Positions 4,218 through 27,126 of a stretch of DNA of 64,000 nucleotides are shown here, piece after piece. Source of the DNA: a virus (taxonomy: Duplodnaviria > Caudoviricetes); IMG/VR virus record IMGVR_UViG_2671180868_000001, positions 2,117 through 66,116 of that record; one strand, written 5' to 3'. The notes beneath the pieces are model-generated. The model was not told where the DNA came from and ran no database searches. It was given only the letters and a program-made list of their open reading frames with translations. The position numbers were made by a program, and so were the translations under genes. The number at the start of each line of letters is the position of its first letter. Position 1 is the first letter of the stretch.

Positions 4218-4461
4218 GATTAATTTTCTCTATCAGTGATGAACTTGTACTGGGGGATGTTTTAAGTATTTCTTTTGCTAGCCGATAACTTTTAGGCTGA
4301 ATATAAATCGCACCTGGCTGCACACGATATTCTCGCCCATGTTTTTCAGGGGCCGGGTAAATATTACCGCCTCGCGCCCAGCGCTGAAGTGTCTGGGGCG
4401 TTGGTTGCTTACTGCGGTAGGTTTCTTCCGCCCATTCTTCTAATGTCAGTAATTTGGTCAT
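4192..4461 (-). CDS. xis: Excisionase
   Basis: LTLEEW...TLQRWARGGNIYPAPEKHGREYRV, lambda Xis-like; overlaps int. Confidence 0.92.
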   Translation of the reverse strand: MTKLLTLEEWAEETYRSKQPTPQTLQRWARGGNIYPAPEKHGREYRVQPGAIYIQPKSYRLAKEILKTSPSTSSSLIEKINHGIKAKTI

Positions 4462-5191
4462 TGGTCTTTCCTCAGTAGGAAAGGGCGCAACGATTCTGCG
4501 CCCTATTATGGTCGTTTGGTCTGGGGTGGTAAGGGGCTATGTTTTTAAGTCGCAATATTTATCCCGTCTCACGATGGGATAAATACTATATATTTTCGTT
4601 TCACACAGATAAAAACGCGAGCAGATTACCTCTATTTTTTGGCTTAAGAACTAGAGTTTGCTGACGTTCTCGATCCATTGATTTAGGGGACGGTCACATG
4701 ATTAATGTAACCAACGTCGTCGAGCATCGATAATCAATTCGCGAGTAGAAGCAGTGGCAGAAAATGATATGTTTAAGCCAATGCAGATTATCGCGGCGTT
4801 TGAAGGGATGGCTAATAGTTGGTCTTAATGGAAGACATCAGCAACAGGGTCCCCGAAAGTTAAGGAGCATGGTTTATCTGCCACGCAACCTAAGCACGGA
4901 TACCTCTATAGATGTTGGCAACTACAAAGTGTCATACGTTCATATGCAAAGCTCCTTCATAGAATTATCTCGTTGTGAATATCTCCGAACAGTACTATCA
5001 TTCTGCTTGCTGGATTTTTGCATCGTAGAAGTAGTCTAAATATGTAGTAATGTTGTGACATTACTAAATGATATTTTCTGCAGCCTTGTATATCGTATTT
5101 TCCTTCTATGTTTATAGGGTTGAGCATAAGTGTTGTTTTTTAATCTAAGTTAAAAAATTACAAACACAGTTAAATTCAAAAAGGAGTACAC

Positions 5192-5725
5192 ATGAACGAT
5201 GAAAAAGAACAAACCTTCCAGATAGATTTAATGCAGAAAATAATAACACGAACAGATGGGTTTCATAATTATGCTAATACAAAATCGACTATAATAATCA
5301 CCTTTATAACTGCTATTATTGCTGCAGTCTGCGCAAATGCACCCTCAGCAATCAAGTTTCTTATTGATAGTAATCATGCAGATCTGGCAGTTGGATTCAA
5401 GGTGCTTACTTTTTTAATTATAACTGCATTGTTAATAGCATTTTTCTTTGTAGGTAAAACTGTAATGCCCTATGTCAAAAAAAGTGAAAATTGTAATATT
5501 TATTCTTTTATAGACATAGTCGGTTATTTTAATTCGGAGGGTGAGTATCGTGAGCGTTTTTATACAACATCCAAAGAAGAATTATTGAATTCGATGTCGT
5601 CCTTGCAGTTTAATTTGGCTCAGGGACTTGTGGCAAAATACTATAATCATAGAATAGCTATATTCTTCATTGCAGGAGCAGTTTTTTTTATTTTTCTGGC
5701 TCTGCTTACTTTGTTAGTTGTATAG
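5192..5725 (+). CDS. pycTM: Pycsar transmembrane effector
   Basis: 3 TM segments, ANTKS motif and C-terminal AKY..HR; directly upstream of the cyclase. Confidence 0.85.
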   Translation: MNDEKEQTFQIDLMQKIITRTDGFHNYANTKSTIIITFITAIIAAVCANAPSAIKFLIDSNHADLAVGFKVLTFLIITALLIAFFFVGKTVMPYVKKSENCNIYSFIDIVGYFNSEGEYRERFYTTSKEELLNSMSSLQFNLAQGLVAKYYNHRIAIFFIAGAVFFIFLALLTLLVV

Positions 5726-5733
5726 GTGAATAA

Positions 5734-7512: not shown

Positions 7513-8337
7513 TTAATCGTTGCCAGGGTAATAAAGGTCGTCTGGTGCCGAATCCCACACTAAGAGACTCCCACCGTGATATAGCGCAAGTACAAGCTTT
7601 TCGAAGCGGCTATATGCTTTGATGATTCTTTTGCCAAGTATCTTGTTGTGTTCCAAACTGCCTGAAAACAGTTCATAGACTGGGTGTTCGTCATGTAGGA
7701 TTTGCGCGCCTCTCCATCCATCTACACGCTCAGCGCGAAAACCTAAATAAACATCGCAGTTGTATGCCTTGCTAACTTCCGTTTTATAGCCGCCAGCCGG
7801 TTCAGCGTGCAATCCGACATAAATAAAACCGTCACGGTCATCCTCAATAAGGGATTGAGGACAATCCCAACGTTCTTCGCTGGCTCTCTCACTGTTATCT
7901 TCTACAAACGCCGCCCAGAGATCAGATGCTTTAATGAATTTTGGTATCACTCCCTCTGAAGTGAACTCAGTTATCATTTCATCCATCTTTTTGACTATGC
8001 CGCTTTCGATACCAGCCGTTTCCCATTTTTCACGCATTAATCGGGTTATAAGGCTGTTATAGCGTTCCAGCTCGATGATGTTCTCGACGTTGGTAGGCAG
8101 CGCGGCTTTCATCGCGTTTTTCATGACCTTGCCGAAGTCGCTATATGAGCCGAAAGCGTCATCGATCAGATTCCCGAAGAGTTTTTCAATGCCCTTGTCG
8201 ATAATTTCGAAGGCTTTCGGGCTGTTGGAAAACTCGACGCAACGCTGAGTGAGTAAGGCCGAAAGGGGTAACTCAGTAGGTTGCTGGGATACAGAAAATG
8301 TTGGTGCATCAATCTGGTGAGTTTTATCGTTGGTCAT
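7513..8337 (-). CDS. Hypothetical early phage protein
   Basis: 274-aa ORF in the pL operon; starts in the shared RBS motif. Confidence 0.8.
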   Translation of the reverse strand: MTNDKTHQIDAPTFSVSQQPTELPLSALLTQRCVEFSNSPKAFEIIDKGIEKLFGNLIDDAFGSYSDFGKVMKNAMKAALPTNVENIIELERYNSLITRLMREKWETAGIESGIVKKMDEMITEFTSEGVIPKFIKASDLWAAFVEDNSERASEERWDCPQSLIEDDRDGFIYVGLHAEPAGGYKTEVSKAYNCDVYLGFRAERVDGWRGAQILHDEHPVYELFSGSLEHNKILGKRIIKAYSRFEKLVLALYHGGSLLVWDSAPDDLYYPGND

Positions 8338-8401
8338 TGGTCAGTCCTCAGTCTATTTTTTCGAAATAAATTACCCATACTCATGGGTTTTTCCTCTACA
8401 A

Positions 8402-10010: not shown

Positions 10011-11615
10011 TTACTGCGTGATAGAGAAATAGCGGATCCGGCCAGCTTTTACCGCGTTGTACAGGCGGTTAACTGTTTCAGTAGTAAGCTCAATTCCTGC
10101 CGCCACTAAATCAGCATCAATTTGGGCAATCCAATTAGCTGGCTTGTCTGTTAGTGGCGTATTTACCGACCCGCCCAGTTGCTTAGGAAAGTTAACCGAT
10201 CCCGCAGGGTGTAACGACTGATGTACTGTTGCATCCGTACTTGCGGCGACTGTTTCTGTAGTGGCCACTGGCGCTGCCTGTTGTTGTTTTTTCAATTCAT
10301 CAAGCCGCAATGCTTCCTGCTGTCTGTGCTGTTCCTCAATCTGTTTTTGCCTGGTAATGCGTTGATCAATCATCAGCGCCAGATGTTCGTGCTCAAGGGC
10401 AATTATCTGGTTGATGTCAGCGAACAGATTTTTATAAGCCGGTTCAATATCAGCAAATAGCACTAAGTTGGACTGATATTTCTCACCTAATTGGTTAGCA
10501 GCTATCTTGGCGCGGGCCAGTTCATCGTTGGCTGCACTCTGCAAAGAGGTGAGGGTTTTCTTGCCTTTGATAGCAGTGGCAAAATCAGCCGGGATAGTAG
10601 GTAGAGTGACAATAGCCAACTGTTTATTGATACCGGCAATGTGCTCAGCAAGAGCGGCTTTTACCTTATTCAGTATTTCAAGGCGAATAGCTTCTTTGCG
10701 CAACTTAACGAGTTTTGACAGGTCTAGCCGTTTGTTTCGCATTTCATCGCGCAAGGTATCAATGGTGCGGAAAAGTAGATCAATCTGCTCAGTCTTAGAC
10801 AGTGCCTGCTGTTTAATCAGATCCAGCTCTTTCTCTGCTTTTTCACAAAACTTAACGGTTTCTTCTGCGTCAGCGAAGTCCTGATCGGTCACCAGATTAG
10901 TGTTGATAGATTGAATAAAGGCCAACGCTTGATTCTGGTAAACAGTCAGGTTTGATTCTTTTACCGCGCCCTCTATCTCCACCAATAGGGCAGGGAGGCG
11001 CATTAAGGCTTTACCTTGCGGTATGTCTTTTATCTCAGGGGCTGTGTAACCGTTCAAATCCTGTTCAAATTGCTGCCAACCCGCCATCAAAGCTTCACGG
11101 CGACCAGGTACCGGTAAATACTCCATCCACACAAAGTTATCCTCAGTGCCATCTGATACCACAAAAATGACCTTTTCGGACTCACTCACTAAAAGTTGCT
11201 GTTCTAACTGCCAGTAATACTCTGGCGGCAAGTCTTTATTTTTCACCGCCAGCGCCAGTGTGGCATTCCACATTTTGTGTTCAAACAACACATCTTCCAT
11301 CATGGTCATGCCATCAAAGGAAGCCAACAAATAGCCATCATCATCGATGGCGGTTGCTGGGAATAATTCGGTACCGATCATGGATTCTACGATGACCCGC
11401 GCTGTGGCTTCTTGCGCGTGGCCTTTATCGAACAAGTTGGTTTGTACCCAATCGCTGATTTCCCGTTCCGAGCCGGTGGCCTTCATATTCAGCAATTCAT
11501 CGCGGCGCATTTTACTGGAGGCTGCCATCATTACCGGGGCTTCGCTGGCAGTGAAATGGCGACTGCGCAAGGCGTGCCATTCCGGCGTACCTTGCTGGAC
11601 ATTAATGATTTGCAT
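10011..11615 (-). CDS. YqaJ / lambda-exonuclease family nuclease with long helical tail
   Basis: QGTPEWHALR..FTASE, LLASFDG, FEHK, YYWQLEQQL. Confidence 0.9.
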   Translation of the reverse strand: MQIINVQQGTPEWHALRSRHFTASEAPVMMAASSKMRRDELLNMKATGSEREISDWVQTNLFDKGHAQEATARVIVESMIGTELFPATAIDDDGYLLASFDGMTMMEDVLFEHKMWNATLALAVKNKDLPPEYYWQLEQQLLVSESEKVIFVVSDGTEDNFVWMEYLPVPGRREALMAGWQQFEQDLNGYTAPEIKDIPQGKALMRLPALLVEIEGAVKESNLTVYQNQALAFIQSINTNLVTDQDFADAEETVKFCEKAEKELDLIKQQALSKTEQIDLLFRTIDTLRDEMRNKRLDLSKLVKLRKEAIRLEILNKVKAALAEHIAGINKQLAIVTLPTIPADFATAIKGKKTLTSLQSAANDELARAKIAANQLGEKYQSNLVLFADIEPAYKNLFADINQIIALEHEHLALMIDQRITRQKQIEEQHRQQEALRLDELKKQQQAAPVATTETVAASTDATVHQSLHPAGSVNFPKQLGGSVNTPLTDKPANWIAQIDADLVAAGIELTTETVNRLYNAVKAGRIRYFSITQ

Positions 11616-12447
11616 CTTCTGCCTCCAGATGTTCGATAGTTTTGATTTGTGCCGAGGTGAGGGTGTATTTACTTTCGATGGTGTTAATGATTTGCGCGGC
11701 GGTTTTCTTGCCCTTGTTGATCAGCGTTGTCCAGTCAGCAAGCGCGCGTTGAAATTGTTCCGCGCTGTATTCTGGTAGTGCCTGCGGCTGGCTTGGTTGC
11801 TGGCTGCCTTGGCTGTGTTCTTTACCTTCATTCACATCAAGACTTTTACCTTCCATTTCCTCTGCTGTTGGCTGCTGACCAATTTCCGGCCAACCTTTAC
11901 GCAGTGCCTGCGCTTCGGCGCACTTGGCTAATTGCCCATAAGGCCGCTTTTTCCACATGGCATTGGGTGCTTGGGTATCGCGGCCAGCGGTCGCATAGTT
12001 CTCCAGCCAATATTCCTTCGCACTGAACTCCACGATAGTGCCGTTAGGCATGAGTTTGCTCAGGGTGTATTTGCACCACTGAGGGAAAGTAATTTCTACT
12101 CCGTTAAAAACTTGTGTGAGGTCAGGGCCAAATTCGGGTTCCTGTGCACCTGCATAGTTACCAGAGCGGTCTGCCTGTATGCGATAGAGCCCAACACCTG
12201 GCATCACCACATCACGCATTTCATATTTACCACTTACCGCATCTTTCACGCTCATAGGAACTAAATGAACGGGTTTCATCAGCGGATCTAACTGGCGGGC
12301 GCGGCAATAACTCACCGCCATGATGACTGAATCATCTTTAGCGCCAGGGTAAATACTGTTTTTCAGCGCGTTCCACGTTGGTTCGTCAATATTCAACCCA
12401 ACCACGGCGGGCGGGAGATTACTGGTTGTTACTGCTTGGGTGGTCAT
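11602..12447 (-). CDS. bet: Bet/RecT single-strand annealing protein
   Basis: YCRARQLDP, YRIQADRSG, MWKKRPYGQLAKCAEAQALRK. Confidence 0.92.
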   Translation of the reverse strand: MTTQAVTTSNLPPAVVGLNIDEPTWNALKNSIYPGAKDDSVIMAVSYCRARQLDPLMKPVHLVPMSVKDAVSGKYEMRDVVMPGVGLYRIQADRSGNYAGAQEPEFGPDLTQVFNGVEITFPQWCKYTLSKLMPNGTIVEFSAKEYWLENYATAGRDTQAPNAMWKKRPYGQLAKCAEAQALRKGWPEIGQQPTAEEMEGKSLDVNEGKEHSQGSQQPSQPQALPEYSAEQFQRALADWTTLINKGKKTAAQIINTIESKYTLTSAQIKTIEHLEAEDANH

Positions 12448-12457
12448 TGGTCAGCCC

Positions 12458-12607
12458 TCAGATTTTGACAGCGATAGCCAGAAACATGAACGCGCCTAAA
12501 ACACAGGCGAAGAAGAATTTCAGGCCAGATTGGCGGGGATACAGGTTGAAGTCGTCGCCGGTAACGCGGTGGCGGTATTGGAGTTTCTTGATGAATTCAA
12601 TAGTCAT
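12458..12607 (-). CDS. 49-aa small membrane protein (not in ORF track)
   Basis: MTIEFIKKLQYRHRVTGDDFNLYPRQSGLKFFFACVLGAFMFLAIAVKI; stop lies within the bet RBS motif. Confidence 0.65.
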   Translation of the reverse strand: MTIEFIKKLQYRHRVTGDDFNLYPRQSGLKFFFACVLGAFMFLAIAVKI

Positions 12608-12615
12608 GGTATGCT
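12588..12615 (+). promoter_or_regulatory. Sigma70 promoter with extended -10, convergent with pL
   Basis: TTGATG-16 nt-TATGCT with TG in the extended -10 position. Confidence 0.65.
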
Positions 12616-12620
12616 TTCCC

Positions 12621-12750
12621 ATGGTTGGGTTTGGTCACTCAACCACGCTGATAATAATCCTCGTGGTTATTGTTCAGTCCTCAGTAGGTTTGCGGTTGGT
12701 CCCGCACTCCTGGGATAGCCCCGGCTTAATCGCTGGGGCTTTTCTCTTTT
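12621..12750 (+). ncRNA. Candidate multi-target antisense sRNA against the early-gene RBS motif
   Basis: Promoter, two hairpins with TTGGTC loops, antisense GTGGTTATTGTTCAGTCCTCAG and an intrinsic terminator; G:U pairs favour the + strand. Confidence 0.65.
12717..12750 (+). terminator. Intrinsic terminator of the candidate sRNA
   Basis: AGCCCCGGC-TTAATC-GCTGGGGCT followed by TTTCTCTTTT. Confidence 0.75.
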
Positions 12751-12775
12751 AGGATATGGATAAGTAAGAAAAGGT

Positions 12776-13426
12776 ATGAAAAGACAACTTGTAGTTTTAT
12801 TAGCATCAATTCTTAGTATCCCATCAGCATTTGCTGTAGATATTCCAGCCATGGAAAAGGTAATGCGTGAAGGCATGCAGAACCCGAAAACAGTGGAATA
12901 TCGGTCAATCACTGAAGTAACCAACGCTACCGGCGAAACGTTTGTTTGTGGTGAGGTCCGTATTACAGGGGAAAATAGTCAAGAGGCTGATTTCATTCCC
13001 TTTGCTTATACTCAACACAAAACTATCTACGTGAGTTCAGATCTTTCTAAGAATGAGAAAAGTGAGTATCGTCTGACTGGATGTGAAAGCAAAGAATCAG
13101 AGGCATCTTGGTATAAGACTCTAACGATATTAGATACAAACTGCCTTGCCGGTTTTCAAACACTAAAAGCTTATTTCAGTGAAGGAAAATCAGACGAGCT
13201 TGCTATCGCCGCAGGCGTTAGCGTTTGGGATGATTTCAATAAAAAAATAGGAAAATCTGCTGATGCTGAATTTAATAAATCGGCTTATTACTATTTAAGA
13301 TCGATATTGAATCAGGCTAAGGCTAACCCAGAAATGGGGGCTGAGATTAAAGCAGATCCAATAGCAACAAAGAATGAATTCCTTGCTAATTGCAGAGCAA
13401 TTTTTATTGAAAAGGCTATCAAATAA
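12776..13426 (+). CDS. Exported protein (moron) of unknown function
   Basis: Signal peptide ending AFA; opposite strand to the pL operon; AT-rich. Confidence 0.75.
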   Translation: MKRQLVVLLASILSIPSAFAVDIPAMEKVMREGMQNPKTVEYRSITEVTNATGETFVCGEVRITGENSQEADFIPFAYTQHKTIYVSSDLSKNEKSEYRLTGCESKESEASWYKTLTILDTNCLAGFQTLKAYFSEGKSDELAIAAGVSVWDDFNKKIGKSADAEFNKSAYYYLRSILNQAKANPEMGAEIKADPIATKNEFLANCRAIFIEKAIK

Positions 13427-13444
13427 TTATCGCGATTATTATTC

Positions 13445-13771
13445 CTAGTCTATGAAGGTGCTTTGTGTTGCATCTAACTCCATGGCTCTTTCTGCTTTGG
13501 CAACACGGAGAAATATTTCCTCCTGCACCTCATCCAGATAGAGTTCCATAGCGGTTGTTTCGGTAAGTGCTGCAAGGTAATGGGTACTTGCACCCGCAAT
13601 AAAGCAGCCATTTTTGACAGCGGTTTTAAAAGCGCCGAGCATTTTTGAATGACGGCGTAAAAACTCAATCCTCTTGCCTAATTCCTCTTGCTCATCAGGA
13701 TCCGAAATTAATAGGCGGTCATACTGTTCCAGCGATTGCTCAACCATTCGCTGATAGTTGTATTCATTCAC
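13445..13771 (-). CDS. Possible Gam-like host-nuclease inhibitor (GTG start)
   Basis: GAGGT SD; MNEYNYQ...EQEELG...GAS...EVQEEI resembles lambda Gam by eye; upstream of bet/exo. Confidence 0.5.
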   Translation of the reverse strand: MNEYNYQRMVEQSLEQYDRLLISDPDEQEELGKRIEFLRRHSKMLGAFKTAVKNGCFIAGASTHYLAALTETTAMELYLDEVQEEIFLRVAKAERAMELDATQSTFID

Positions 13772-13834
13772 GATGCACCTCACGGTAAGGAGTGTTGCCG
13801 AAGCCCCTGCGAACAGAGGCAGCGGTAAAGCCAC

Positions 13835-14104
13835 TTATTCGCCGTCTTTCTTTTCGTTAATGCGTTGGAATGGGTAGCGATCTGTATCTGGCTTGATATT
13901 GCGGTAGAAGTGAGAGCCAATTGATTCAGCGCCGGAGAATGCCGCGTAATCATCAGCGGACACGTTTTTGTAGTGATACAGGGCCGCCGGTTCACCTTTC
14001 GACTTAAAACGAATCGCCAGAATGTTGTTAACTGGGTCATGGCCGATGCTGTGGATCTGGGAAGATTCAATCTGCTTCATACTAATTGCTGGTAAATTGC
14101 TCAT
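13835..14104 (-). CDS. KTSC domain protein
   Basis: ESSQIHSIGHD...LYHYKNVS...AESIGSHFYRNIK. Confidence 0.85.
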   Translation of the reverse strand: MSNLPAISMKQIESSQIHSIGHDPVNNILAIRFKSKGEPAALYHYKNVSADDYAAFSGAESIGSHFYRNIKPDTDRYPFQRINEKKDGE

Positions 14105-14122
14105 ATTGGTTCCTTTTAGGTG

Positions 14123-14154
14123 AAAAAAAAGAGCCACAGCCTAAGCTGTAGCTC
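14123..14154 (-). terminator. tL1-like terminator after N
   Basis: GAGCTACAGC-TTAG-GCTGTGGCTC then T8 on the minus strand. Confidence 0.8.
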
Positions 14155-14188
14155 CGATGGTTTATTTTGCTTTCCTGCTAATTAATGC

Positions 14189-14434
14189 TTAACGCACGCC
14201 GCGAGGTAACTTACTGCAACCACGCATCTTTTGGCGGGCAACTGCTGCAATCCGTTTCTCTGGATCTGCTGAAGTTCTGGGCTTGCTGGGTACTGCTGGC
14301 ATATCTGGCATCGGTTTACACCGCACCAAAACTAATACTGCTTTTTCAACTCGGTTACTTTCACGCTTTGCCAGTGCCTGGATATGGGCATTGCGTTTTT
14401 TTGCCATACGCTTTTGACGAGATGTTGTGGCCAT
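14189..14434 (-). CDS. N: N-like early antiterminator
   Basis: Basic N-terminal motif; RVEKAV and RQKMRGCS match lambda N RVESAL and RQKIKGKS. Confidence 0.75.
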   Translation of the reverse strand: MATTSRQKRMAKKRNAHIQALAKRESNRVEKAVLVLVRCKPMPDMPAVPSKPRTSADPEKRIAAVARQKMRGCSKLPRGVR

Positions 14435-14525
14435 TGGTCAGTCCTCAGTTGGTTTTTGCCGGGATATTTATCCACGCCCGGCGCGTGCTATCCTTGCTGT
14501 CACCACAACAAGTAAGGATATCTGT

Positions 14526-14804
14526 ATGAAAGAAAGATTTGAATCTACTTGCCCGCTATGTGATAGCGCTGGAAGCTATGTGTTCACCGATTCTTCTAAC
14601 TACAAAGCTTATAAATGTGTCGAGTGCGGGATATTTGAAATCAGTACGCATGCAGAAAAACTAGTAAGAAATATGCCACTAGAGAGAAGAGCATTTTATG
14701 CATCGCTGGCAAACACTACTCCAGAAGAACCATTATTGGAGATTGCTTTTGAGGTTCTTCCGACAGGGAGCCGAGTTACTCATCGTTATATCAGCACCCG
14801 TTAG
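14526..14804 (+). CDS. Small Zn-ribbon protein
   Basis: AAGGA SD; CPLC and CVEC pairs. Confidence 0.6.
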   Translation: MKERFESTCPLCDSAGSYVFTDSSNYKAYKCVECGIFEISTHAEKLVRNMPLERRAFYASLANTTPEEPLLEIAFEVLPTGSRVTHRYISTR

Positions 14805-14948
14805 TTTTTTACTTTCTTCAATAGTACGAATTGACAGCATAAGACCGTCTTTATTCAGCCAATTATTGAGTTGCTGGAAAACAAAACTCGGATATTTTTC
14901 CAGTAGCTCCTTTATTTGTAGTTGTATATCGAGGCTAGGTTTATTCAT
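14733..14948 (-). CDS. Small hypothetical protein in the pL operon
   Basis: AAGGTG SD; 3' end overlaps the convergent ORF. Confidence 0.45.
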   Translation of the reverse strand: MNKPSLDIQLQIKELLEKYPSFVFQQLNNWLNKDGLMLSIRTIEESKKLTGADITMSNSAPCRKNLKSNLQ

Positions 14949-15275
14949 CTAAACACCTTTATCAGTGGTCTTATACCTACCGCCGCATACAAACAGCGAC
15001 AGGGTAAATCCACTCGTCATTTTAAGCTGCTTGTGCGTTAACCGGGCGCGAACCGGTTACTCAGTGATGCTTCACGCCTCCTTTCCCTCACTACGCCGCT
15101 GTGGGAACCCGACCTGTAACTCCGTCGTCGCGTGCCTGAATCTAATCAGGCAGTGGGGGGCGGCCTATCCGCGTTTTTACTTCATGATTTTTCCTCCATT
15201 GTGGGTACTGCGTGGTTTAGCTGAGCTGAACCGTGACCGGTACACGCGGACCGTTTTGATGTCACTTAACCGATT

Positions 15276-15287
15276 TGTTAAAGAGCA
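15276..15287 (-). promoter_or_regulatory. nutL boxA
   Basis: Consensus TGCTCTTTAACA just downstream of pL. Confidence 0.85.
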
Positions 15288-15306
15288 TATCCTTGCGGGA
15301 TGCCTA

Positions 15307-15337
15307 AAAGGTATAACTATACCGGTACTTTTGCAAC
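15307..15337 (-). promoter_or_regulatory. pL promoter with operator
   Basis: TTGCAA-17-TACCTT overlapped by the palindrome GGTATAACTATACC (15310-15323). Confidence 0.7.
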
Positions 15338-15387
15338 CAAAAGATCGATAAGTTTCGGTAATTAATGTATTGGATTGAATTTGAAAC

Positions 15388-15411
15388 AAAAAAAACCGGC
15401 ATTTGCCGGTT
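15388..15411 (-). terminator. Immunity-operon terminator
   Basis: AACCGGCAAATGCCGG followed by a T run on the minus strand. Confidence 0.75.
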
Positions 15412-15432
15412 GGGTGGTTTGAACTCTGGGGG

Positions 15433-15798
15433 TTACGGCTGAAGCTGAAGATATAGAAGTACGAGGTTAGCCGCTCTTATAAAAGCGGATATACCGCAGA
15501 AATAAGCGAATACAGACACACACTTAGTCAAGATCCTGAAGGCTTTGTTATTAAGGATTTTAGATGAGCGCCATAGACCTTGACCGACATTCAATATATA
15601 AATTGCATAAAGCACTATCGCCAGAACAATGACCCAGAAATTCCAGTCAGCAAACACTGCAAAGAAAGTAACCGCAGAGATAAAAATAATAGCGAGGAGG
15701 AAGTGGAGATAAGTCTTAGCAACACCAAGTTGCCCACTACCTAATTTTGCCAACCAGCTTAATTTATCCTCTTTCGAAATAGGATGATTAACAATCAT
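15433..15798 (-). CDS. Membrane protein co-transcribed with cI (rex position)
   Basis: About 3 hydrophobic segments; 9 nt downstream of cI. Confidence 0.75.
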   Translation of the reverse strand: MIVNHPISKEDKLSWLAKLGSGQLGVAKTYLHFLLAIIFISAVTFFAVFADWNFWVIVLAIVLYAIYILNVGQGLWRSSKILNNKAFRILTKCVSVFAYFCGISAFIRAANLVLLYLQLQP

Positions 15799-15807: not shown

Positions 15808-16479
15808 TTATACTGGTTTTACGTGGCACACCACTGTGCCGATAATCTCACAATTACCGTTTACTTTTAAAAATCTAGCATCAGACGGATAGTCTGGATT
15901 CAATGCTTTAAGATAGCGTTGGTTATCAAGGATTTGTAGCTGTTTAAATGTGGCTTCAGCACTGCCTTCCATACGAGCAATAACATATTTTCCGCTCGGT
16001 GGATCGATTAATTCTGGGTCAACATAAATAATGTCGTCCGGCTCAAATCGAGGCAGCATCGATTCGCCTTCTATGCGTAAAGCGAAACTTTCGGGGCTAC
16101 ATACAACGGGGCAGGGATAATAAACATACTCATCCCGTGGCAGCAGAGTTACTTCAGTAAATGCTCCAGCTTGTACCCAGCTAATCAATGGAACCTCTCT
16201 GGTGAGTATGTCAATCGGCGAGGCGTTATCGATTTTCATAGCGGCCTGATTACTAGCCTCTTTTTCTCCTTTTCCTGAAACCAACCAGTTTGGATTTAAC
16301 TGTAAGGCTTTAGCTAACGCAAACAGATTATCCGCCCGGGGTTTCTGTGTCATCCCAAGCTCAATTTTGCTTATTGCCATACGAGTGATTCCAGCCTTTG
16401 CCGCAAGATCTTCCTGCGTCATGCCTAGTTCCTCGCGCCTTGCCAAAAGGCGTTCACCGAAAGTGCTATATGTATTCAT
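15808..16479 (-). CDS. cI: CI repressor (HTH plus S24 peptidase)
   Basis: N-terminal HTH, VQAG cleavage site, GESM catalytic Ser, TFK Lys. Confidence 0.96.
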   Translation of the reverse strand: MNTYSTFGERLLARREELGMTQEDLAAKAGITRMAISKIELGMTQKPRADNLFALAKALQLNPNWLVSGKGEKEASNQAAMKIDNASPIDILTREVPLISWVQAGAFTEVTLLPRDEYVYYPCPVVCSPESFALRIEGESMLPRFEPDDIIYVDPELIDPPSGKYVIARMEGSAEATFKQLQILDNQRYLKALNPDYPSDARFLKVNGNCEIIGTVVCHVKPV

Positions 16480-16480
16480 A

Positions 16481-16563
16481 GGTATAAAAGTAACTCAACT
16501 TTAGTAAACTTTGCGCTCGGTAAAGTTTCGGTATATATTCACCTTTATGGGTATAATTCTACC
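16481..16563. promoter_or_regulatory. oR / pR / pRM region
   Basis: 14-bp sites GGTATATATTCACC (16530) and GGTATAATTCTACC (16550) resemble oL; TATAAT at 16552. Confidence 0.7.
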
Positions 16564-16589
16564 CTTGAATTTAGAGGTGAGAATCTGCG

Positions 16590-16856
16590 ATGAATTGCAC
16601 TAAGACCAATTCGCTAAATGAACGCATTAAAGCTGCTGAACAGGTAATTAACCATTTCAGTAGCCCTTATCAGGCGGCGAAAGCCCTTGAGTGCTCATAT
16701 GAAGCAATTAAAACCTATCGTAAACGTGGGCTACCTGAAAAGGTTGCTTTGCTTTGTCATATGTCTACGGACATCCCATACACCTATAACCCGGCCGACT
16801 ATGGCCGTAATCCGGAAAATCTCAGCCTGGTTCTGACCAAACCAGCTCATCAGTAA
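16590..16856 (+). CDS. cro: Cro-like repressor
   Basis: Divergent from cI; HTH YQAAKALECSYEAIKTYRKRGLP. Confidence 0.8.
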   Translation: MNCTKTNSLNERIKAAEQVINHFSSPYQAAKALECSYEAIKTYRKRGLPEKVALLCHMSTDIPYTYNPADYGRNPENLSLVLTKPAHQ

Positions 16857-16873
16857 AGATAGAGGACTGACCA

Positions 16874-17236
16874 ATGACCACAATTTATCAACCTGCCGCT
16901 ATAACGGCAGGGGCTAGGATAGCCTCTGACGTTCGGCGGGAATTGCTATCCCGTAAAAAAGTGGGAAAGAACGGTTTACCGATCCATACCGTGCGTGAAG
17001 ATCAGATTAAGACTCGTTGGACCGAAAGTGAGGCAGTGGCCATAAAAAGCACCGCCAACGCGCTGGAATCAAACCCCGCAGTAGAAACCAATGTGGCCGC
17101 CATTCGTGGTTTTTTGGCGATGTTTGCCGAGGCTCCCGAAATGCTGGCTCACGTTCATGCCGAATTAAAACTAGCCGGGCTGCCGGTACCCGAATGGTTG
17201 CCTGAGCTTCCCATCAACCAGGAGAAATCCCAATGA
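16874..17236 (+). CDS. Regulator in the cII position
   Basis: Position between cro and O; starts in the shared RBS motif. Confidence 0.55.
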   Translation: MTTIYQPAAITAGARIASDVRRELLSRKKVGKNGLPIHTVREDQIKTRWTESEAVAIKSTANALESNPAVETNVAAIRGFLAMFAEAPEMLAHVHAELKLAGLPVPEWLPELPINQEKSQ

Positions 17237-17412
17237 CTAACATCACGCCAACCACCACACAATCGGTAGAACTGATTGCCGATATTGTGGCTAAAAAACT
17301 GGCTATTGACGGGCAGGAGGCCCGCCGTATGGCGATCACAGGGGCTTTGTCTAGGGTGACTCAGGCGTTTTATTCCCGTCAACATAGTCCCTCAGATGCA
17401 AAGCAGCCGTAG
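17233..17412 (+). CDS. 59-aa hypothetical protein (not in ORF track)
   Basis: AGGAG SD, ATGA overlap; MTNITPTTTQSVELIADIVAKKL... Confidence 0.6.
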   Translation: MTNITPTTTQSVELIADIVAKKLAIDGQEARRMAITGALSRVTQAFYSRQHSPSDAKQP

Positions 17413-17420
17413 GGGGAACT

Positions 17421-18266
17421 ATGACGGCATCTGAACTCATATACCAATTTGGCCGGCCAATTGCCTACTACCCTGGCTTGGTTCCATATCTTGGGAGCGT
17501 AAACGCAGTCATTTTGTTCTGCCAGTTCTTCTATTGGACGGGCAAAGAAACTTCAGAGTTTGGCATTTTTAAAACTACGGAAGAGATTGAATATGAAACA
17601 GGATTGACCTACGAGGAACAACTGACAGCCCGTAAAAAACTCAAGCAAGCGGGGGTTTTGAAAGAAACAAATAAGCGGTTAGAACACCGTATTTACTATC
17701 AGATTGATACCGACCGGTTGGATGGAATGCTATCGCAACCTATTGATAAATCCCCAAATGGGGAAAGCCCATTTCGGGAAACGGGAAAACACCAATTGGC
17801 GAACGAGGAAAAGCCCAAGCCGCCAGCAAGGGATTCCCTAACTGGCGGGCAAGGGATTCCCCATTTCGATCATACAGAGATTACTACAGAGACTACTTCA
17901 GAGAAGCGCACACGTAAGGCGGTTAAAAATTCGGTATTTGATTTTTCGTCTTTCCCGATGGCTGTTAGCCCTGAAATTTGGGATGACTACCTAAAACACC
18001 GAAAAGCAAAACGAGCGCCAATGACGCAGACGGTGGTGAACATGTTGGGTAAGGAATTGAGTAAAGCGGCTGCTGTTGGATGGTCTGTGGATGATGCGTT
18101 GTCTGAAGCCATGGCCGCCGGTTGGCAGGGGTTGAAATTTGAATGGTTGCAGAATCGTAGTCGGCTACAGAATCAGCACACCCCTAACACCGGTATGAGC
18201 CGTCAGGAAGCACTGGAGGCGCACAATGCACGGGTTGCGGATGATTTTGTCAATGGTGGGCGGTGA
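17421..18266 (+). CDS. Replication initiator (O-like)
   Basis: GRPIAYYP wHTH N-terminus; C-terminal WDDYLKHRKAK...GWQG. Confidence 0.85.
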   Translation: MTASELIYQFGRPIAYYPGLVPYLGSVNAVILFCQFFYWTGKETSEFGIFKTTEEIEYETGLTYEEQLTARKKLKQAGVLKETNKRLEHRIYYQIDTDRLDGMLSQPIDKSPNGESPFRETGKHQLANEEKPKPPARDSLTGGQGIPHFDHTEITTETTSEKRTRKAVKNSVFDFSSFPMAVSPEIWDDYLKHRKAKRAPMTQTVVNMLGKELSKAAAVGWSVDDALSEAMAAGWQGLKFEWLQNRSRLQNQHTPNTGMSRQEALEAHNARVADDFVNGGR

Positions 18267-19042
18267 GTATGCAGGGTTTAGATGATAAACGTGAATTTGC
18301 AGAAATCATGAAAGCCACTCTGGCGATATACGGCAAAGATGCATCGAAAGCTGTGCTGGAACTCTATTGGAATGCGTTGCTGCCCAACGATATCGACACA
18401 GTACGCCAGGCATTCAGCAATTGGTTGACCGATCCGGATCAGGGCCGTTTCTCACCAAAACCTGCCGATATTATCCGCAATATTCAACATATTGCCGGTA
18501 AACCCGATTGGCTGTCAGCGAATGAGGCGTGGGCATTGGCATTACCGGCGCAAGATGAGGCTAACACTGTGGTCTGGACGAATGAAATTGCCCAAGCCTG
18601 GAATATTGCTCAGCCAATTATGCAGGAAGGTGACAAAGTTGGGGCGCGTATGGCTTTCATCGCAGCCTATGAGCGGCTGACTAAGGCAGCACAAGGGGCA
18701 GGCCGATTACCGGAGTGGTCAGTATCAGAGGGATGGAACAAAGAAACGGTAAAACGCACGGTTGAGCAGGCGGTAACAACAGGACTCCTGCCCAAACCTA
18801 AAGCTGAGAAATATCAGTTATTGCTACCAGACAAAAACAAGCTCGGGGAAGGAGTTCCAACAAAAATTCGTCATTTTTTAGACGAACTGAAAGACAAAAT
18901 TAAACAGGATCAGGAGGAACGAGCAAGGAAATGGCGCGATGAAAGTATCAGGTTACAAGAGTCTCTGGACAGTAAACACCGAGAGTCATTGCAGCAGGCC
19001 GCCGACCACGGTTTGCAAAATAATCAAATTACTGAGGACTGA
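18263..19042 (+). CDS. Replication protein in the P position (helicase loader/inhibitor-like)
   Basis: FSPKPADII, ANEAW, GARMAFIAAYERL motifs; follows O. Confidence 0.65.
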   Translation: MSMQGLDDKREFAEIMKATLAIYGKDASKAVLELYWNALLPNDIDTVRQAFSNWLTDPDQGRFSPKPADIIRNIQHIAGKPDWLSANEAWALALPAQDEANTVVWTNEIAQAWNIAQPIMQEGDKVGARMAFIAAYERLTKAAQGAGRLPEWSVSEGWNKETVKRTVEQAVTTGLLPKPKAEKYQLLLPDKNKLGEGVPTKIRHFLDELKDKIKQDQEERARKWRDESIRLQESLDSKHRESLQQAADHGLQNNQITED

Positions 19043-19045
19043 CCA

Positions 19046-20182
19046 ATGAGCATTAATTTCAAGAACGTGTTGATTTACAAACTATCCCGCGATGTCTCTT
19101 TCGCTGATTTGGAACAGCAACTGGCGCAATTCGCATTCACACCCTGCGGTAGCCAGGATAGGGCAAAAACCGGTTGGATATCGCCCATGGGTAACGAAAG
19201 CGCCGCGCTAGCGCATGTGGCTAACCAGCAAATCCTGATCACATTGCAGTGTGAAAAAAAGGATTTGCCTGCGCCGGTTATCGCCCGTGAGCTGGCGAGT
19301 AAAGTTGAGCGTTTGGAGCAAGAGCAACACCGTAAACTGAAAAAAACAGAAAAAGACTCGCTGAAAGATGAAGTTATCCAGACTCTGCTGCCACGGGCCT
19401 TTAGCAAATACTCTACAACATCCCTCTGGATTAACGCAGGGGCTGGGTTAATCATCATCGATGCCGCTAGCGCGCGAAAAGCTGAAAATGCATTGTCATT
19501 ACTGCGCAAAACCATGGGCTCTCTGCCAGTTATCCCTCTGACACTCAATACCCCGATTGAACTGACGTTAACCGAGTGGTTGCGCTCAGATGCAGCGCCT
19601 GCTGGGTTTGTGCTTCAGGAAGAAGCTGAGCTAAAAGCCGTTTTGGAGCAGGGTGGCATTCTGCGCAGTAAGCACCAAGATTTGGTCACTGACGAGATCC
19701 GTGGGCATATCGCCGCCGGTAAACTGGTGACCAAACTGGCGCTGGAGTGGCAGGGCCGCATTAGCTTCATGTTGTACGACGATGGCAGCCTGAAGAAAGT
19801 GAAATACAGTGCCACGCTGTTGGAGCAAAACGACGATATTGATCGGGAAGATTACGCTCAGCGTTTTGATGCGGACTTTATTCTGATGACGGGTGAACTG
19901 GCAGCGCTCATTGCCCATTTGGTTGATGCGCTGGGTGGCGAGGCAACCAGTAGTTCATGGGTCGATTTGGACGGCGTAGAGCGAGACGATGATGATCGCT
20001 ATCCTGAAGCAGTGGAGTTCATCAAGACGAGGGGGAAAGCTTCAATCTCTGGGCTACAGCGTGAACTCCGCATTGGTTATAACCGTGCTGCCTGGCTGCT
20101 GGAAAGAATGCAGGTGGAAGGCATTGTGTCACAACCCACGCCAGACGGAACCCGCCAAGTGCTGGTCGGGGAGGGCGCGTAA
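19046..20182 (+). CDS. rdgC: RdgC fused to a C-terminal FtsK-gamma domain
   Basis: FKNVLIYKL...FDADFILM, then [31 protein letters not shown]. Confidence 0.9.
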
Positions 20183-23509: not shown

Positions 23510-24153
23510 CAACAGCGCAGCGAACTAAGTCCCCGAGAAAGAAAAAGACTGAGGTGCTGGGCGTCCTGTTACCTGGTGGTGGAATCAAGTACGCCACTGA
23601 TCATGATCGGGAAACTATGAAGGGGGTGCCTGCGGGCACTCCAATCTCAATGAGTCCAATTGGCGACCGGCGCAACCTGAAGCATCACCGTAAATTCTGG
23701 AAATTGTTGGAGCTGGGTTTCTCATATTGGGTACCGGATTGGACCTTTGTTAGTGCGCCAGAGGAATGGATAGCCCATGAGGTGGCTAAAGCTGTGGGTA
23801 GTGCCGCTGGAGATCCAGAACTCTATGAGAATGTTACAAAGTCTATTGCTCAAGCAGTATTAGACAGGGTAATCAGGCAGCGCCAGAAGAGGTTTGATGG
23901 GGAGGCTGTAAAGACTGATGCAGCCTACTTCAACCACGTTATGATCAAGGCCGGATTCTATGACCTGATGCCCAACCCCGAGGGTGGCACATTGAAGCAG
24001 CGCTGGAGTATCGCATTCGTGAATATGGATCAGGGGGCTTTTGACCGTATTTATAAAGGCGTGGCCGGTGTTATCTGGAATGAGACATTAGGCCAGCACT
24101 TTGATAACGAGTATGAAATGGAACAGGCAGTTAACCGACTGCTGGAATACTGA
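23506..24153 (+). CDS. DUF1367-like nin-region protein
   Basis: RNLKHHRKFWKLLELGF.YW and SIAFVNMD. Confidence 0.75.
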   Translation: MTTAQRTKSPRKKKTEVLGVLLPGGGIKYATDHDRETMKGVPAGTPISMSPIGDRRNLKHHRKFWKLLELGFSYWVPDWTFVSAPEEWIAHEVAKAVGSAAGDPELYENVTKSIAQAVLDRVIRQRQKRFDGEAVKTDAAYFNHVMIKAGFYDLMPNPEGGTLKQRWSIAFVNMDQGAFDRIYKGVAGVIWNETLGQHFDNEYEMEQAVNRLLEY

Positions 24154-24163
24154 GGACTGACCA

Positions 24164-24598
24164 ATGAGCGATAATAACGATATTCATGATGATCAAAGTG
24201 ACAATGTATTGGCATTCACCAAGCGATTTAACGAGAACGCTGATATCAAAGAAATGCTGAATTTTGTTAAGGCTGAGCCAGCAGCAAGCCAAAGCCGACG
24301 CTGTACTCATAGTAAAATTTTAGTTGATGATCATCTGCGTCAACTTACTTGCCGCCTGTGTGGTGCTGTAGTGGAAGCATTCGACTGGATTAACTCAGTA
24401 ACGAAAAATGAAACAAAAGTCGATTGGGAACTTAAAGGACTGCGTGGGGAAATTAAGCAACATCGTGAAGGTTTAGAAAAGCTGAAACGTGAAGAGGTTA
24501 ATTGCCGGGCAAGGATTAAGAATGCCGCATTCAAGTTGAATGATATCAATCTCCAGATCAGCAAAGCAGAGAGCGATCTAAGGGATAAAAGTGAGTAA
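24164..24598 (+). CDS. Zn-binding coiled-coil hypothetical protein
   Basis: CTH...CRLC followed by a coiled coil; shared RBS motif. Confidence 0.7.
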   Translation: MSDNNDIHDDQSDNVLAFTKRFNENADIKEMLNFVKAEPAASQSRRCTHSKILVDDHLRQLTCRLCGAVVEAFDWINSVTKNETKVDWELKGLRGEIKQHREGLEKLKREEVNCRARIKNAAFKLNDINLQISKAESDLRDKSE

Positions 24599-25356: not shown

Positions 25357-25427
25357 GCTTTCTTTCTACTGGAGTTTGAGTTTGCATAGTGTATTGGTGA
25401 TTTATTGATGATTAAAGGTGCTCAATA

Positions 25428-26222
25428 ATGTCTGGAAGTAGAAACTTGATAAATGTGTGTTATGAGGGAAGCGGTGGTGACAGTCCTAATAATATAAGAA
25501 CTTGCTATATTGATGGCATTCTCCATTTTTCGTTGCGGGATATTTTTATTGTTTTAAGTAAGGAGAATAGAGAGTTAGGTGTTGCTAACCCTACTCGATA
25601 TATTCCTACACTGATAAAAAACCAAATAAAAGAATTAGATCAAGACGAATACACATTGTTACCTGTGCCTAACGAGGGTTTTGTGGGGGAAAAAGAAGTA
25701 TTCATTACCCAGCCTGGTTTAAATAGAGTTATGGGGACTGACAAGTCAAAAGCAGGGAGAAAGTTTCAGCGCTGGATATATCATGAAGTTGTACCATCAC
25801 TAACAAAACATGGTGAATATCCGCCACCAATGACATTGCAAGGTTCAGCCTTAGCTCAAATGGCTGAAATTGTTGCTCAGACATCACGTATGGTTGCTGA
25901 CACCATCATCCGTCAGGAGCAGTTGGCACAAGAAGTGACTGCTGTTAAAGGCGAAGTGGAAGGGGTTTCTAATCGTTTATCTAAACTCGAAAACAACACA
26001 TTATCAGATGAATTTATACTTTCAGTCAGAGAGTGGTTTGATAAATCAGAGTTGGTTTTAAGTACCCAAAAAGAATTAGAAATTGTCACATGGTGTGAAA
26101 ACCTAAGCTTAACGAATAATCGACCTCGGCAACCATGCCCTTCTGGTGAAAGATTGAGAGCGCGTTTCTATAAAGAAATAATCGAGCAAGCTAAAAACTT
26201 GGTAGAAGATGCTCGTAATTAA
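25428..26222 (+). CDS. BRO-N domain protein (antirepressor-like)
   Basis: FITQPGLNRV...KFQRWIYHEVVPSLTKHGEY. Confidence 0.8.
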   Translation: MSGSRNLINVCYEGSGGDSPNNIRTCYIDGILHFSLRDIFIVLSKENRELGVANPTRYIPTLIKNQIKELDQDEYTLLPVPNEGFVGEKEVFITQPGLNRVMGTDKSKAGRKFQRWIYHEVVPSLTKHGEYPPPMTLQGSALAQMAEIVAQTSRMVADTIIRQEQLAQEVTAVKGEVEGVSNRLSKLENNTLSDEFILSVREWFDKSELVLSTQKELEIVTWCENLSLTNNRPRQPCPSGERLRARFYKEIIEQAKNLVEDARN

Positions 26223-26316
26223 ACGTTCCATAATTTGCAATTGATTTATTTATTGTTGCGAATTATGGGATGAGCTATAGAATCAGTCTTGTGAATTTAA
26301 AGCACAGGACTGACCA

Positions 26317-27126
26317 ATGACCACTGCAATTGAACAACTTATCAAAATGCACGATCCGCGCTGCGTCAGCATAGAATCGCTGAACATTGGCAGAGGTCGT
26401 GCAGTTCTGACCAAAGACCAGATATTAGGTACTTTTGCTACCTGCCAGCATATACACCCTGTCGGATTCGATATTTTGATGACCAAATACCGTAATGACT
26501 GCAAAGCCGAGCAACGCTTACGAGCTGCAATTAGTGTGTGGCTACATAAGCGATCGCATCCACCTCGAGCCATTGCTGCCTGCCAGTTAGCGCTGAATAT
26601 GGTATTGGATAGAAATCTCCCGGCGCAGGTAGAGCAAATTGCAACTTTACTGCGGCGTTACGGATCTCGGACTGGAATGACCAGAAAAGTCGTTGATGGT
26701 CTACAGCAGCAAATCAAATTGCTGGAAAGAGATAAAGCCCAGGCACTTGATGATGGCACTATCGTATTACTGGCAGACGAAATAAAAGCCCTTCAGTCTA
26801 AAATCAAAACAGAACGCGGAGCATTGCGGGCATGGGCTAATCAGCAGGCATCTATAACGCAGGTATGCCCACGTTGCCATGGTGCCGGTAAAATTCTGCG
26901 ACCTCATCCAGAAACATGCAACGAATGCGGTGGTGGTGGCCGTATACCGCCGACAATGGAACATCTGCGCAAATCCATGGGCATCATAGGGACTGAGATA
27001 CCCGCCGGGGAGTGGGCTGCGCAATATGCGCCGGTGGTTAAAGAATGCATGCAATGGCTATATGTAGAAGAGTCCGAAGCTGCTGATATTCTCAAGCAAC
27101 GAATGAGTGAAGAAATCGGGGATTGA
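26317..27126 (+). CDS. Q: Late antiterminator Q (Zn-finger type)
   Basis: CPRCHGAG...CNECGGGG; position before the late promoter and lysis genes. Confidence 0.75.
   Translation: MTTAIEQLIKMHDPRCVSIESLNIGRGRAVLTKDQILGTFATCQHIHPVGFDILMTKYRNDCKAEQRLRAAISVWLHKRSHPPRAIAACQLALNMVLDRNLPAQVEQIATLLRRYGSRTGMTRKVVDGLQQQIKLLERDKAQALDDGTIVLLADEIKALQSKIKTERGALRAWANQQASITQVCPRCHGAGKILRPHPETCNECGGGGRIPPTMEHLRKSMGIIGTEIPAGEWAAQYAPVVKECMQWLYVEESEAADILKQRMSEEIGD

Follow-up and report, generated by a model that had tools for sequence, protein, structure and literature searches.

Why would eight early genes of a lambda-like prophage, lying in both of its early operons, share one and the same sequence across ribosome-binding site, spacer and start codon? 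The question arises in the IMG/VR virus record IMGVR_UViG_2671180868_000001, of which we analysed 64 kb out of 66 kb (positions 2,117 to 66,116; hereafter the window, with coordinates counted from its first letter and + and - denoting its strands). The window holds the prophage together with host flanks, and the closest named relatives of its RecT protein are those of Yersinia alsatica and Y. similis (95-96% identity). An initial annotation, made from the letters of the window, had described a 17-nt motif at these starts and proposed that it is an address tag for coordinated translational control, naming an RNA-binding protein site or a micro-homology boundary for module exchange as alternatives. 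Genetic switches are classically taught on lambda-type phages, whose known RNA controls, OOP, paQ and sib, act on one gene apiece; in the present case, one address with two dedicated complementary RNAs appears to serve a set of switch genes. Judging from the sequence comparisons described below, we consider it roughly 60% probable that the motif, which we call the tag, is an address for complementary 'anti-tag' RNAs whose pairing would block translation.

A search of the window for CTGAGGACTGACCAATG with up to three changes returned nine matches, whereas 100 dinucleotide shuffles average 0.19 (largest count 1, with none of the 100 reaching nine). At eight of the nine, the final ATG is the start of an open reading frame (ORF), these encoding 89, 274, 281, 81, 120, 378, 144 and 269 amino acids (aa), and all eight sites initially claimed were recovered with their coordinates and strands. 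On the minus strand, the tag opens xis (4459-4475; ORF 4192-4461), where it reads CTGAGGAAAGACCAATG, a variant ending in ...GGAAAGACCAATG, a 274-aa gene assigned to PHROG 2600 (8335-8351, exact; ORF 7513-8337), the RecT gene (12445-12461, one change; ORF 11602-12447) and an N-like 81-aa gene (14432-14448, exact; ORF 14189-14434). On the plus strand, it opens a 120-aa 'cII-like' gene 3 nt past the cro stop (16860-16876, two changes; ORF 16874-17236), a gene for RdgC fused to an FtsK-gamma domain (19032-19048, exact; ORF 19046-20182), a 144-aa gene (24150-24166, exact; ORF 24164-24598) and a Q-like antiterminator gene (26303-26319, two changes; ORF 26317-27126). The ninth copy (12668-12684, -), absent from the earlier list, ends in ATA and starts no ORF; its complement is the central anti-tag of a predicted small RNA (sRNA) to which we return below.

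Family searches place Xis in PF07825, RdgC in PF04381 and the Q-like protein in PHROG 127 and TIGR02642. The protein of the gene first labelled bet belongs to the RecT family (PF03837). Of the ORFs first named N and cII-like, neither protein matches any family, and only the position and the Arg/Lys-rich N terminus of the 81-aa protein suggest that it is N-like. Two finer points of the initial description also hold: the sequence continues as ATGACC at five genes (xis, the 274-aa gene, RecT, the 120-aa gene and the Q-like gene), and two extra GACCA copies, the first of them GACCAA, stand in the xis leader (4509-4521, -), where they are possible extra docking sites for the UUGGUC loops of the sRNA.

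The distribution of the tag over the genes of the window is all-or-none. Among 60 likely genes hand-picked from the ORF list for this comparison, eight carry it with 0-2 mismatches of 17, and the other 52 show 6-14 mismatches. The untagged set comprises every late gene, as well as the moron and opposite-strand cargo genes, int, cI, cro and the O/P-like replication genes, in agreement with the initial remark that the motif is missing from late and moron genes.

Conservation extends past the start codon. Over 71 unique contexts from 17 phage regions, the letters at +4 to +7 (ACC A), which played no part in finding the sites, are conserved at 0.94-1.41 bits, whereas the flanks further out vary, and for this reason we regard the tag as a unit of about 21 nt with the consensus (C/A)T(G/A)AGGACTGACCAATGACCA, which spans the Shine-Dalgarno (SD) sequence, spacer and AUG and usually codon 2 as well. 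GACCA occurs twice within these 21 nt, and the SD lies 7 nt ahead of the ATG. Together with the A that follows, the tag also provides a stop codon in each frame, namely TGA or TAA at positions 2-4, a TGA in the spacer (positions 9-11) and the ATGA overlap, on which upstream ORFs end at 18, 17 and 5 of 99 sense sites. In the window, the TGA at positions 2-4 is the stop codon of the small ORF upstream of RecT and of the gene upstream of the 144-aa gene, and the gene upstream of RdgC stops at the spacer TGA. As a separate observation, the 3' end of cro (16827-16845, +) can form a possible 6-bp hairpin with a CUGACCA loop, placed 15 nt ahead of the start tag at the 120-aa gene; relatives, including the one designated G002, retain this hairpin, which could be a loop-loop partner of the UUGGUC loops of the sRNA.

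Tags recur with the same genes in related phages. Each of nine related proviruses carries 7-9 copies, and every one of another 25 with the same late leader has between 1 and 10, the low counts coming from fragments. Across 30 RecT loci from named genomes, tags are present at seven (4-7 copies each) and absent from 23, the positive loci belonging to five genera: Yersinia (two), Serratia, Symbiopectobacterium, Pectobacterium (two) and Brenneria. In a tblastn survey of orthologs conducted blind to the tag, its 13-nt core was found with at most one change at 16/16 cII-like, 15/15 RdgC, 13/13 N-like and 6/6 144-aa orthologs (47-100% protein identity, the lower end lying at 47-64% depending on the gene), and xis-like genes retain the core with 0-2 changes down to 31% identity. 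The same genes are tagged across five host genera even though their proteins have diverged to 31-69% identity. RecT itself is tagged in Yersinia and Brenneria and untagged in four other lineages, and in some Q-like genes the tag spacer is 1-2 nt longer. Nine early genes, namely int, cI, cro, the O-like and P-like genes and four others, are never tagged (4-10 changes). By this pattern of conservation, the tag is under purifying selection on a specific set of genes, which is not what drift of a repeat looks like. The 99 sense copies in the 17 phage regions are accompanied by 33 ORF-less ones, of which 17 lie at the sRNA locus, 13 in the late leader and three are strays. None of the strays was kept as an anti-tag: that at +24413 of G002 is a Q-like start with a spacer one nucleotide longer, and those at -4812 of G003 and -10873 of Pbe are chance-like and were left uncounted.

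The motif is also specific to the phage, so that the refuting condition named in the initial annotation, an equal frequency at genes of the late region or of the host, does not hold. All 21 exact 13-mers in five complete host genomes of 4.5-5.3 Mb lie within the prophage, and one-mismatch matches outside it are as frequent as for the reversed control. A scan of 201 genomes sampled from the same GTDB family found an exact copy in 20, with at least two copies on one contig in only four; the others comprise 15 genomes with a single copy and one with two copies on different contigs, and the reversed control matched 22 genomes. From a first scan of viral sequences, a double match at locus L081 was set aside as an unrelated internal repeat in a large ORF, and most single-match contigs are probably chance matches. 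A collection of 50,697 phage records holds no DNA similar to 12000-20000 of the window, to the sRNA or to the late leader; the family is known only as prophages and has therefore gone unstudied.

What could read such an address? One complement of the tag lies in a predicted sRNA unit at 12588-12752 (+), antisense within the leftward early operon and upstream of a small ORF and RecT. Its predicted promoter (12588-12615) has the form TTGATG-16-TGgTATGCT, that is, a -35 and a -10 element with TGn, and the predicted sRNA of about 130 nt (about 12621-12749) folds into four hairpins, including a terminator. Hairpin 1 (12622-12645) exposes the loop UUGGUC; the 3' arm of hairpin 2 is the AUG-proximal half of the anti-tag and is followed by single-stranded UCCUCAG or UCCUUAU (anti-SD); past this stretch, hairpin 3 again has the loop UUGGUC, the complement of GACCAA; and the intrinsic terminator (12717-12740) ends in a U-run that exists on the + strand only. 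The sRNA thereby shows the tag complement three times, in two UUGGUC loops and in a central stretch of 17-23 nt. In the window, the central anti-tag and the tag form 15 Watson-Crick pairs, one G.U pair and one mismatch over 17 nt; in the G002 type and in the types from outside Yersinia, the centre of the sRNA is a perfect 23-nt complement of the tag that includes ACC A.

The sRNA unit is near-identical in nine relatives while the adjoining coding sequence drifts, and mosaic sequence begins directly past the terminator U-run. A terminator scan yielded 63 viral stretches, which reduce to 43 distinct variants; 37 of these have the full sRNA and, once trimmed, give 33 distinct RNAs. Every variant folded adopts the same four hairpins (z = -4.5 to -6.9), and the -10 element keeps TATNNT in 37/37. 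MAFFT alignments shift the 3' arm of hairpin 1 by one column between types, giving a poor RNAalifold consensus; loop-anchored and model-based counts were used instead. In the loop-anchored counts, UUGGUC is kept in hairpin 3 of 33/33 variants and in hairpin 1 of 24/33, and the stems switch between GC and CG and between UA and AU while the loops stay. A covariance model matches 65 of 93 sources, among them all seven tag-positive RecT loci and none of the 23 tag-negative ones, and the 3' module of the sRNA was found in exactly those four of the 201 sampled genomes that have clustered tags. Paired cells amount to 95.4% over the 33 distinct sequences, compared to 86.1 ± 0.5% after shuffling (0 of 500 shuffles reach the observed value), with changes on both sides in 18 of 42 pairs and a covariation score of 0.350 versus 0.188 shuffled and at most 0.073 slid, although the alignment behind these pair counts was fitted to the model structure and so favours it. 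The paired cells include 218 G.U, so that the opposite strand would pair only 80.5%, which argues that selection acts on the sRNA strand. At the gathering score, no Rfam family covers 12588-12752 or, in the late leader, 27530-27670; the best Rfam E-value over 12300-13000 is 1.3, for a match upstream of the sRNA unit.

Opposite the sRNA, on the minus strand, lies the 5' untranslated region (UTR) of the small ORF (12458-12622; 54 aa, or 49 aa from its second ATG), and the sRNA promoter falls within the start region of this ORF. The encoded protein has a hydrophobic C terminus and no family match in profile searches, and the differences among relatives are mostly synonymous. In relatives outside the Yersinia type, a mini-ORF of 6-8 codons with its own ribosome site stands at the sRNA-locus tag copy, ahead of the small ORF.

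Some further observations concern the surroundings and variants of this locus. An opposite-strand gene of 216 aa (12776-13426, +) begins right past the sRNA terminator. G000, G001, G004, G006, G007 and Y. alsatica have this gene, whereas G003, G005, G008, G009 and Y. similis have unrelated sequence in its place, and the exchange sets in where the terminator U-run ends. A Yersinia-type variant of the sRNA (L245, 5743-5872; also L247) has a terminator loop changed from CUUAAUCG to CUUGGUCG, which makes a third UUGGUC loop. In G005 (L135, about 12190-12270), a second, partial copy of the sRNA region, consisting of the hairpin 3 complement and a tag, lies directly ahead of the N-like start; read on the other strand, it consists of an anti-tag, hairpin 3 and a U-rich tail.

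The other complement lies in the leader of the late operon, on the plus strand. A candidate late promoter, TTGACT-17-TAAATT (27530-27558), is conserved across genera and followed by AAAGAT, and this stretch (27530-27580) appears to be laid out as in lambda pR', with a -10-like pause element. It is followed by a terminator-like hairpin with a U-run (27569-27602), the anti-tag (27603-27624), which reads AUUGGUCAGUUC and is continued by a second, partial copy, CCGGUCAGUUC, and a second terminator hairpin with a U-run (27635-27670). All nine relatives retain this order of promoter, hairpin, anti-tag and terminator. Between both hairpins, the spacer of G002, Serratia, Pectobacterium and Brenneria contains UAUUGGUCAGUCCU, the complement of the tag core, and then CA or A; UAUUGGUCAGUCCU is expected from folding to be unpaired. 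A 144-aa ORF with a GTG start (27107-27541, +) occupies the space from the Q-like gene to the late promoter.

Predicted pairing separates tagged from untagged starts for both RNAs. We computed pairing energies as those of the cofolded dimer minus those of the monomers, having discarded plain duplex energies for their unrealistically long duplexes. With the sRNA, tagged starts reach -11.8 to -26.8 kcal/mol (mean -20.2), compared to a mean of -4.6 kcal/mol at 51 untagged starts (sd 3.1, lowest -14.0); with the late leader, the means are -14.9 and -3.5 kcal/mol, respectively (Mann-Whitney p = 4.5e-6 for the sRNA and 7e-6 for the leader). The letter at tag position 3 goes along with the sRNA of the same phage. 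Where the sRNA has C opposite this position, the tags have G (6/7 in the window, 5/5 in Symbiopectobacterium), and where it has U, they mostly have A (4/5 in Serratia, 6/7 in G002, 5/7 and 4/5 in the two Pectobacterium). The features that mark a base-pairing sRNA, namely complementarity to the SD and AUG of its targets, a promoter, a terminator and a conserved structure, are all present at the level of sequence.

These comparisons establish the tag, its phage specificity, its conservation and its complementarity to an sRNA of conserved fold and strand. The proposal of an address tag gains from the phage specificity, from the same set of genes being tagged in five genera and from complements in two RNA units; its second half, coordinated translational control, stands on sequence, the RNA data considered below being uninformative about such an effect. 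As to whether the RNAs are transcribed and pair in the cell, and in which direction and when they act, we infer the following. Both RNAs would pair with the tag, cover SD and AUG and jointly silence all tagged genes. Since the sRNA is encoded opposite the leftward operon, it should suffer interference and titration from strong early transcription, so that it would matter when that operon is quiet; it would thus be active while leftward early transcription is off, as a fail-safe of lysogeny, blocking in the lysogen any leaky synthesis of the N-like protein, the Q-like protein and Xis. It could possibly also hit incoming relatives with a different repressor, which is conceivable because tag and sRNA are common to phages in which any of three different contexts precedes the N-like gene. 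The late-leader RNA could act as a read-through product of terminator 1, a mode of action shown for StxS of Stx phages (PMC7547250), or, as a second option, be the 5' end of the Q-antiterminated late mRNA, in which case it would bring about early shut-off and feed back on Q.

A wider version of this proposal, to which we give somewhat less than even odds, is a phage-wide RNA address code in which the decision genes (N-like, Q-like, xis, cII-like and recombination genes) are tagged and read by a three-headed sRNA and the late leader, with the tag and its three-frame stops serving in addition as a portable joint between cassettes. The sRNA, produced while the early operons are silent, would then be a second, RNA-based layer of immunity across repressor types, and the leader would end early translation once Q fires. 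The trans-acting network may have arisen from a cis-acting pair resembling a type I toxin-antitoxin system.

Several findings weigh against anti-tag pairing as the function of the tag, in addition to the fitted alignment mentioned above. Tags, sRNA and leader are co-inherited in one phage lineage, so that their co-occurrence and the matching of G or A in the tags to C or U in the sRNA may reflect common descent; homogenisation among tag copies could explain the matching as well, because the central anti-tag is the reverse side of a copy of the tag itself. Hairpin 2 sequesters the AUG-proximal half of the central anti-tag in most variants, a single internal mismatch separates this anti-tag from the tags in the Yersinia and Serratia types, and hairpin 1 of the Serratia type has GUGGUU in place of UUGGUC (9/33 variants). 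The late-leader copy of the window fits the core at only 11 of 13 positions, which alone is not beyond chance. Nine viral loci encode a shorter relative of the sRNA, consisting of hairpin 3 and the terminator, both with UUUGGUC loops, behind a different 5' part, and have no tag in the 2-15 kb examined, so that loops of the UUGGUC type may have another target. As for RNA data, two raw-read runs of the same species label have zero reads over 12300-13000, and two RNA-library contig sets each contain one contig of 2-2.7 kb whose flat depth over 12250-12749 distinguishes neither a separate sRNA nor its strand.

Among other explanations, the tag might be kept mainly as micro-homology at gene boundaries, allowing cassettes to be swapped or deleted in register by the RecT-type recombinase that the phage encodes, with the three-frame stops, the SD and the ATG keeping any new joint functional. 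Such joints do exist. In 5 of the 17 regions, cro and the 120-aa gene are separated by a 455-bp cassette that contains an 83-aa gene and is flanked by 15-nt direct repeats of the tag core; where the remaining Yersinia regions include this junction, it has one tag only. In G005, the stretch ahead of the N-like tag duplicates that ahead of the sRNA-locus tag, an ectopic tag-to-tag joint; the N-like tag is abutted by three unrelated upstream contexts and the Q-like tag likewise by three, and each of the in-tag stops is used by upstream genes at the frequencies given above. Mosaic joints at gene starts are, however, expected anyway, because selection removes broken genes, and an exchange function predicts neither that the same genes are tagged in all genera while the nine other early genes never are, many of which also sit at module borders, nor the conservation into the coding region, the complements in two RNA units, the UUGGUC kept in loops on changing stems or the strand-specific G.U pairs. 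We therefore find it unlikely as the reason for the conservation. The micro-homology boundary of the initial annotation is thus borne out by the 455-bp cassette and the ectopic joint but fits better as a side effect: we take the use of tags as recombination joints to follow from having 8-10 identical 15-21-mers in a RecT-encoding genome, useful to the phage though it may be, and to leave the RNA features unexplained.

A protein, of phage or host, could instead read the tag on the mRNA and repress or activate translation, the complementary RNAs being incidental or having another role. T4 RegA is such a translational regulator of early T4 messages, a protein acting on mRNA through one recognition sequence over many early genes to effect their coordinated shut-off. 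The strict AUG register and the conserved letters outside the SD would suit a sequence-specific binder, several tagged or neighbouring genes have no function assigned by family searches, and the back of the sRNA region, as read on the leftward mRNA, shows GACCAA in two loops and one tag copy, which could be a decoy. Yet the sRNA strand folds better than that of the leftward mRNA (by the paired fractions given above, 95.4% vs 80.5%), and the late leader cannot be a protein decoy because it carries the anti-tag and not the tag. A search of the virus record for the RegA family (PF01818) gave no match, with control genomes equally silent, and no CsrA homologue was found in the record; a reading of the tag as a CsrA site was dropped, given that the GGA context accounts for its 5' part only and that the phage is without a CsrA gene. 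Overall, a protein operator seems quite improbable to us.

It is very doubtful, too, that the tag is simply an efficient cassette for starting and coupling translation, a good ribosome site with built-in stops spread by gene conversion, whose ORF-less copies are decayed or inverted relics. The SD placed 7 nt before the ATG and the 40 of 99 tags that hold the stop codon of the upstream gene agree with this explanation, as does the ninth copy, which resembles a tag that has lost its ATG and at whose place other genera have the mini-ORF of 6-8 codons. Ribosome binding, however, needs no G+C-rich spacer that is identical letter by letter over five genera, the N-like and Q-like tags have no upstream gene to couple to, and one would not expect relics to be maintained, to lie between hairpins that are themselves conserved or to be joined by extra UUGGUC loops on covarying stems. 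Extended pairing of the tag with the 16S rRNA 3' end would probably require a 2-nt bulge. Finally, an asymmetric DNA operator for an elongation-blocking repressor, like the 13-bp stoperators of Cluster A mycobacteriophages, would account for many asymmetric copies aligned with transcription in both early operons and, being readable on either strand, for the ORF-less copies too, but is highly improbable in view of the exact start-codon register of every sense copy with its extension into the second codon, and of selection visible at the RNA level (compensatory pairs, G.U pairs and loop display); nor did a candidate for a second repressor emerge.

With pairing to anti-tag RNAs as the preferred explanation, the closest described analogue of the tag, by its features, is the start-associated sequence (SAS) of Cluster K mycobacteriophages. 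Two papers describe the SAS as short and asymmetric, with an SD core inside, present in 7-19 copies per genome a few nucleotides before mostly ATG starts, in the non-structural half of the genome only, in one orientation, on different gene families and missing from the genome of the host; one opposite-orientation copy away from gene starts occurs in each of four Cluster K phages, and a host or phage RNA or protein is considered there as a possible binder (PMC3203893, PMC12699233). The tag is likewise asymmetric, SD-bearing and multi-copy at starts (8 in the window, 99 in 17 regions), limited to non-structural genes, in one orientation and absent from the host outside the prophage, and it also has ORF-less opposite-strand copies, where the SAS copy is a lone one. 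Unlike the tag, the SAS lies 3-7 bp from the start with variable spacing, whereas the tag extends in fixed register over the ATG and four letters beyond it; an extended inverted repeat (ESAS) accompanies about one in two SAS, and no such repeat is seen at the tag; and those papers describe no complementary RNA for the SAS, whereas the tag has two complements. Stoperators serve as a contrast case to the SAS (PMC3203893); as DNA repressor sites, they also differ from the tag, for which the evidence points to an RNA partner and whose ATG register and codon-2 extension would be unexpected in a stoperator. Because the sequence of the SAS (GGGATAGGAGCCC) is unrelated, as are the phages and their hosts, the tag of these enterobacterial lambdoid prophages is an analogue of the SAS and not a member of it.

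Small RNAs that restrain lytic or anti-repressor functions at or near ribosome sites are familiar from phages. P22 sar and the P4 CI RNA are antisense RNAs of immunity or timing, and C4 recognizes its target through hairpin loops. These RNAs, like C4, OOP and paQ, resemble the tag system in kind but have one or two targets each, in cis or in one operon, whereas 7-10 genes, spread over two divergent operons, have the tag address in common, and two separate RNAs carry its complement. C4 of P1 is reported to be required for full repression of ant (PMC8198154), and OOP and paQ of lambda are named as antisense RNAs (PMC7547250). For the late leader, a parallel is StxS, which Stx phages produce by termination of the pR' transcript; it binds Hfq and, in the lysogen, represses a target gene by pairing at the ribosome site (PMC7547250). 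The late-leader RNA would likewise come from a late promoter upstream of lambdoid late genes; for StxS, a constitutive promoter and action in trans are known, and the late-leader RNA, known here from sequence, is likened to it by layout. StxS further differs in its processing by RNase E, its binding of Hfq and its targets, which are stx1B and rpoS and not a tag shared by the early genes of its own phage (PMC7547250).

The sRNA locus bears a likeness to a type I toxin-antitoxin system as well: a structured antisense RNA, transcribed from a predicted promoter of its own, faces the 5' UTR of a small ORF for a hydrophobic protein, as in hok/sok. The likeness is one of layout alone: the 54-aa gene lies inside a phage early operon, and the complementarity of the RNA reaches many genes. 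Literature searches with the 13-mer and its complement gave no match, and among the matches listed, those of shorter substrings are unrelated; a search for prophage sRNAs at early-gene ribosome sites returned, among the matches listed, only known cases.

If tags are indeed read by these two RNAs, the phage would gate N, Q, Xis and recombination functions jointly and compactly, and RNA-level cross-immunity between phages with different repressors would be possible. The tag and its complement would also be a natural portable and orthogonal pair of ribosome site and anti-ribosome site. For the SAS, described in 2011, with its function still called unverified in 2025 (PMC12699233), the arrangement would offer a first concrete and testable mechanism.

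Two minor observations concern regions beyond the tagged genes. The loci with the short sRNA relative are L211, L214, L222, L229, L231, L238, L241, L248 and L249, and some genes there start with ATGACCAA. At the edge of the prophage, Rfam finds SraC/RyeA (-) and SdsR/RyeB (+) at 2891-3036 (170 and 110 bits), about 70 nt from the integrase gene (3108-4217), so the prophage is probably inserted beside the SraC/SdsR sRNA locus of its host.

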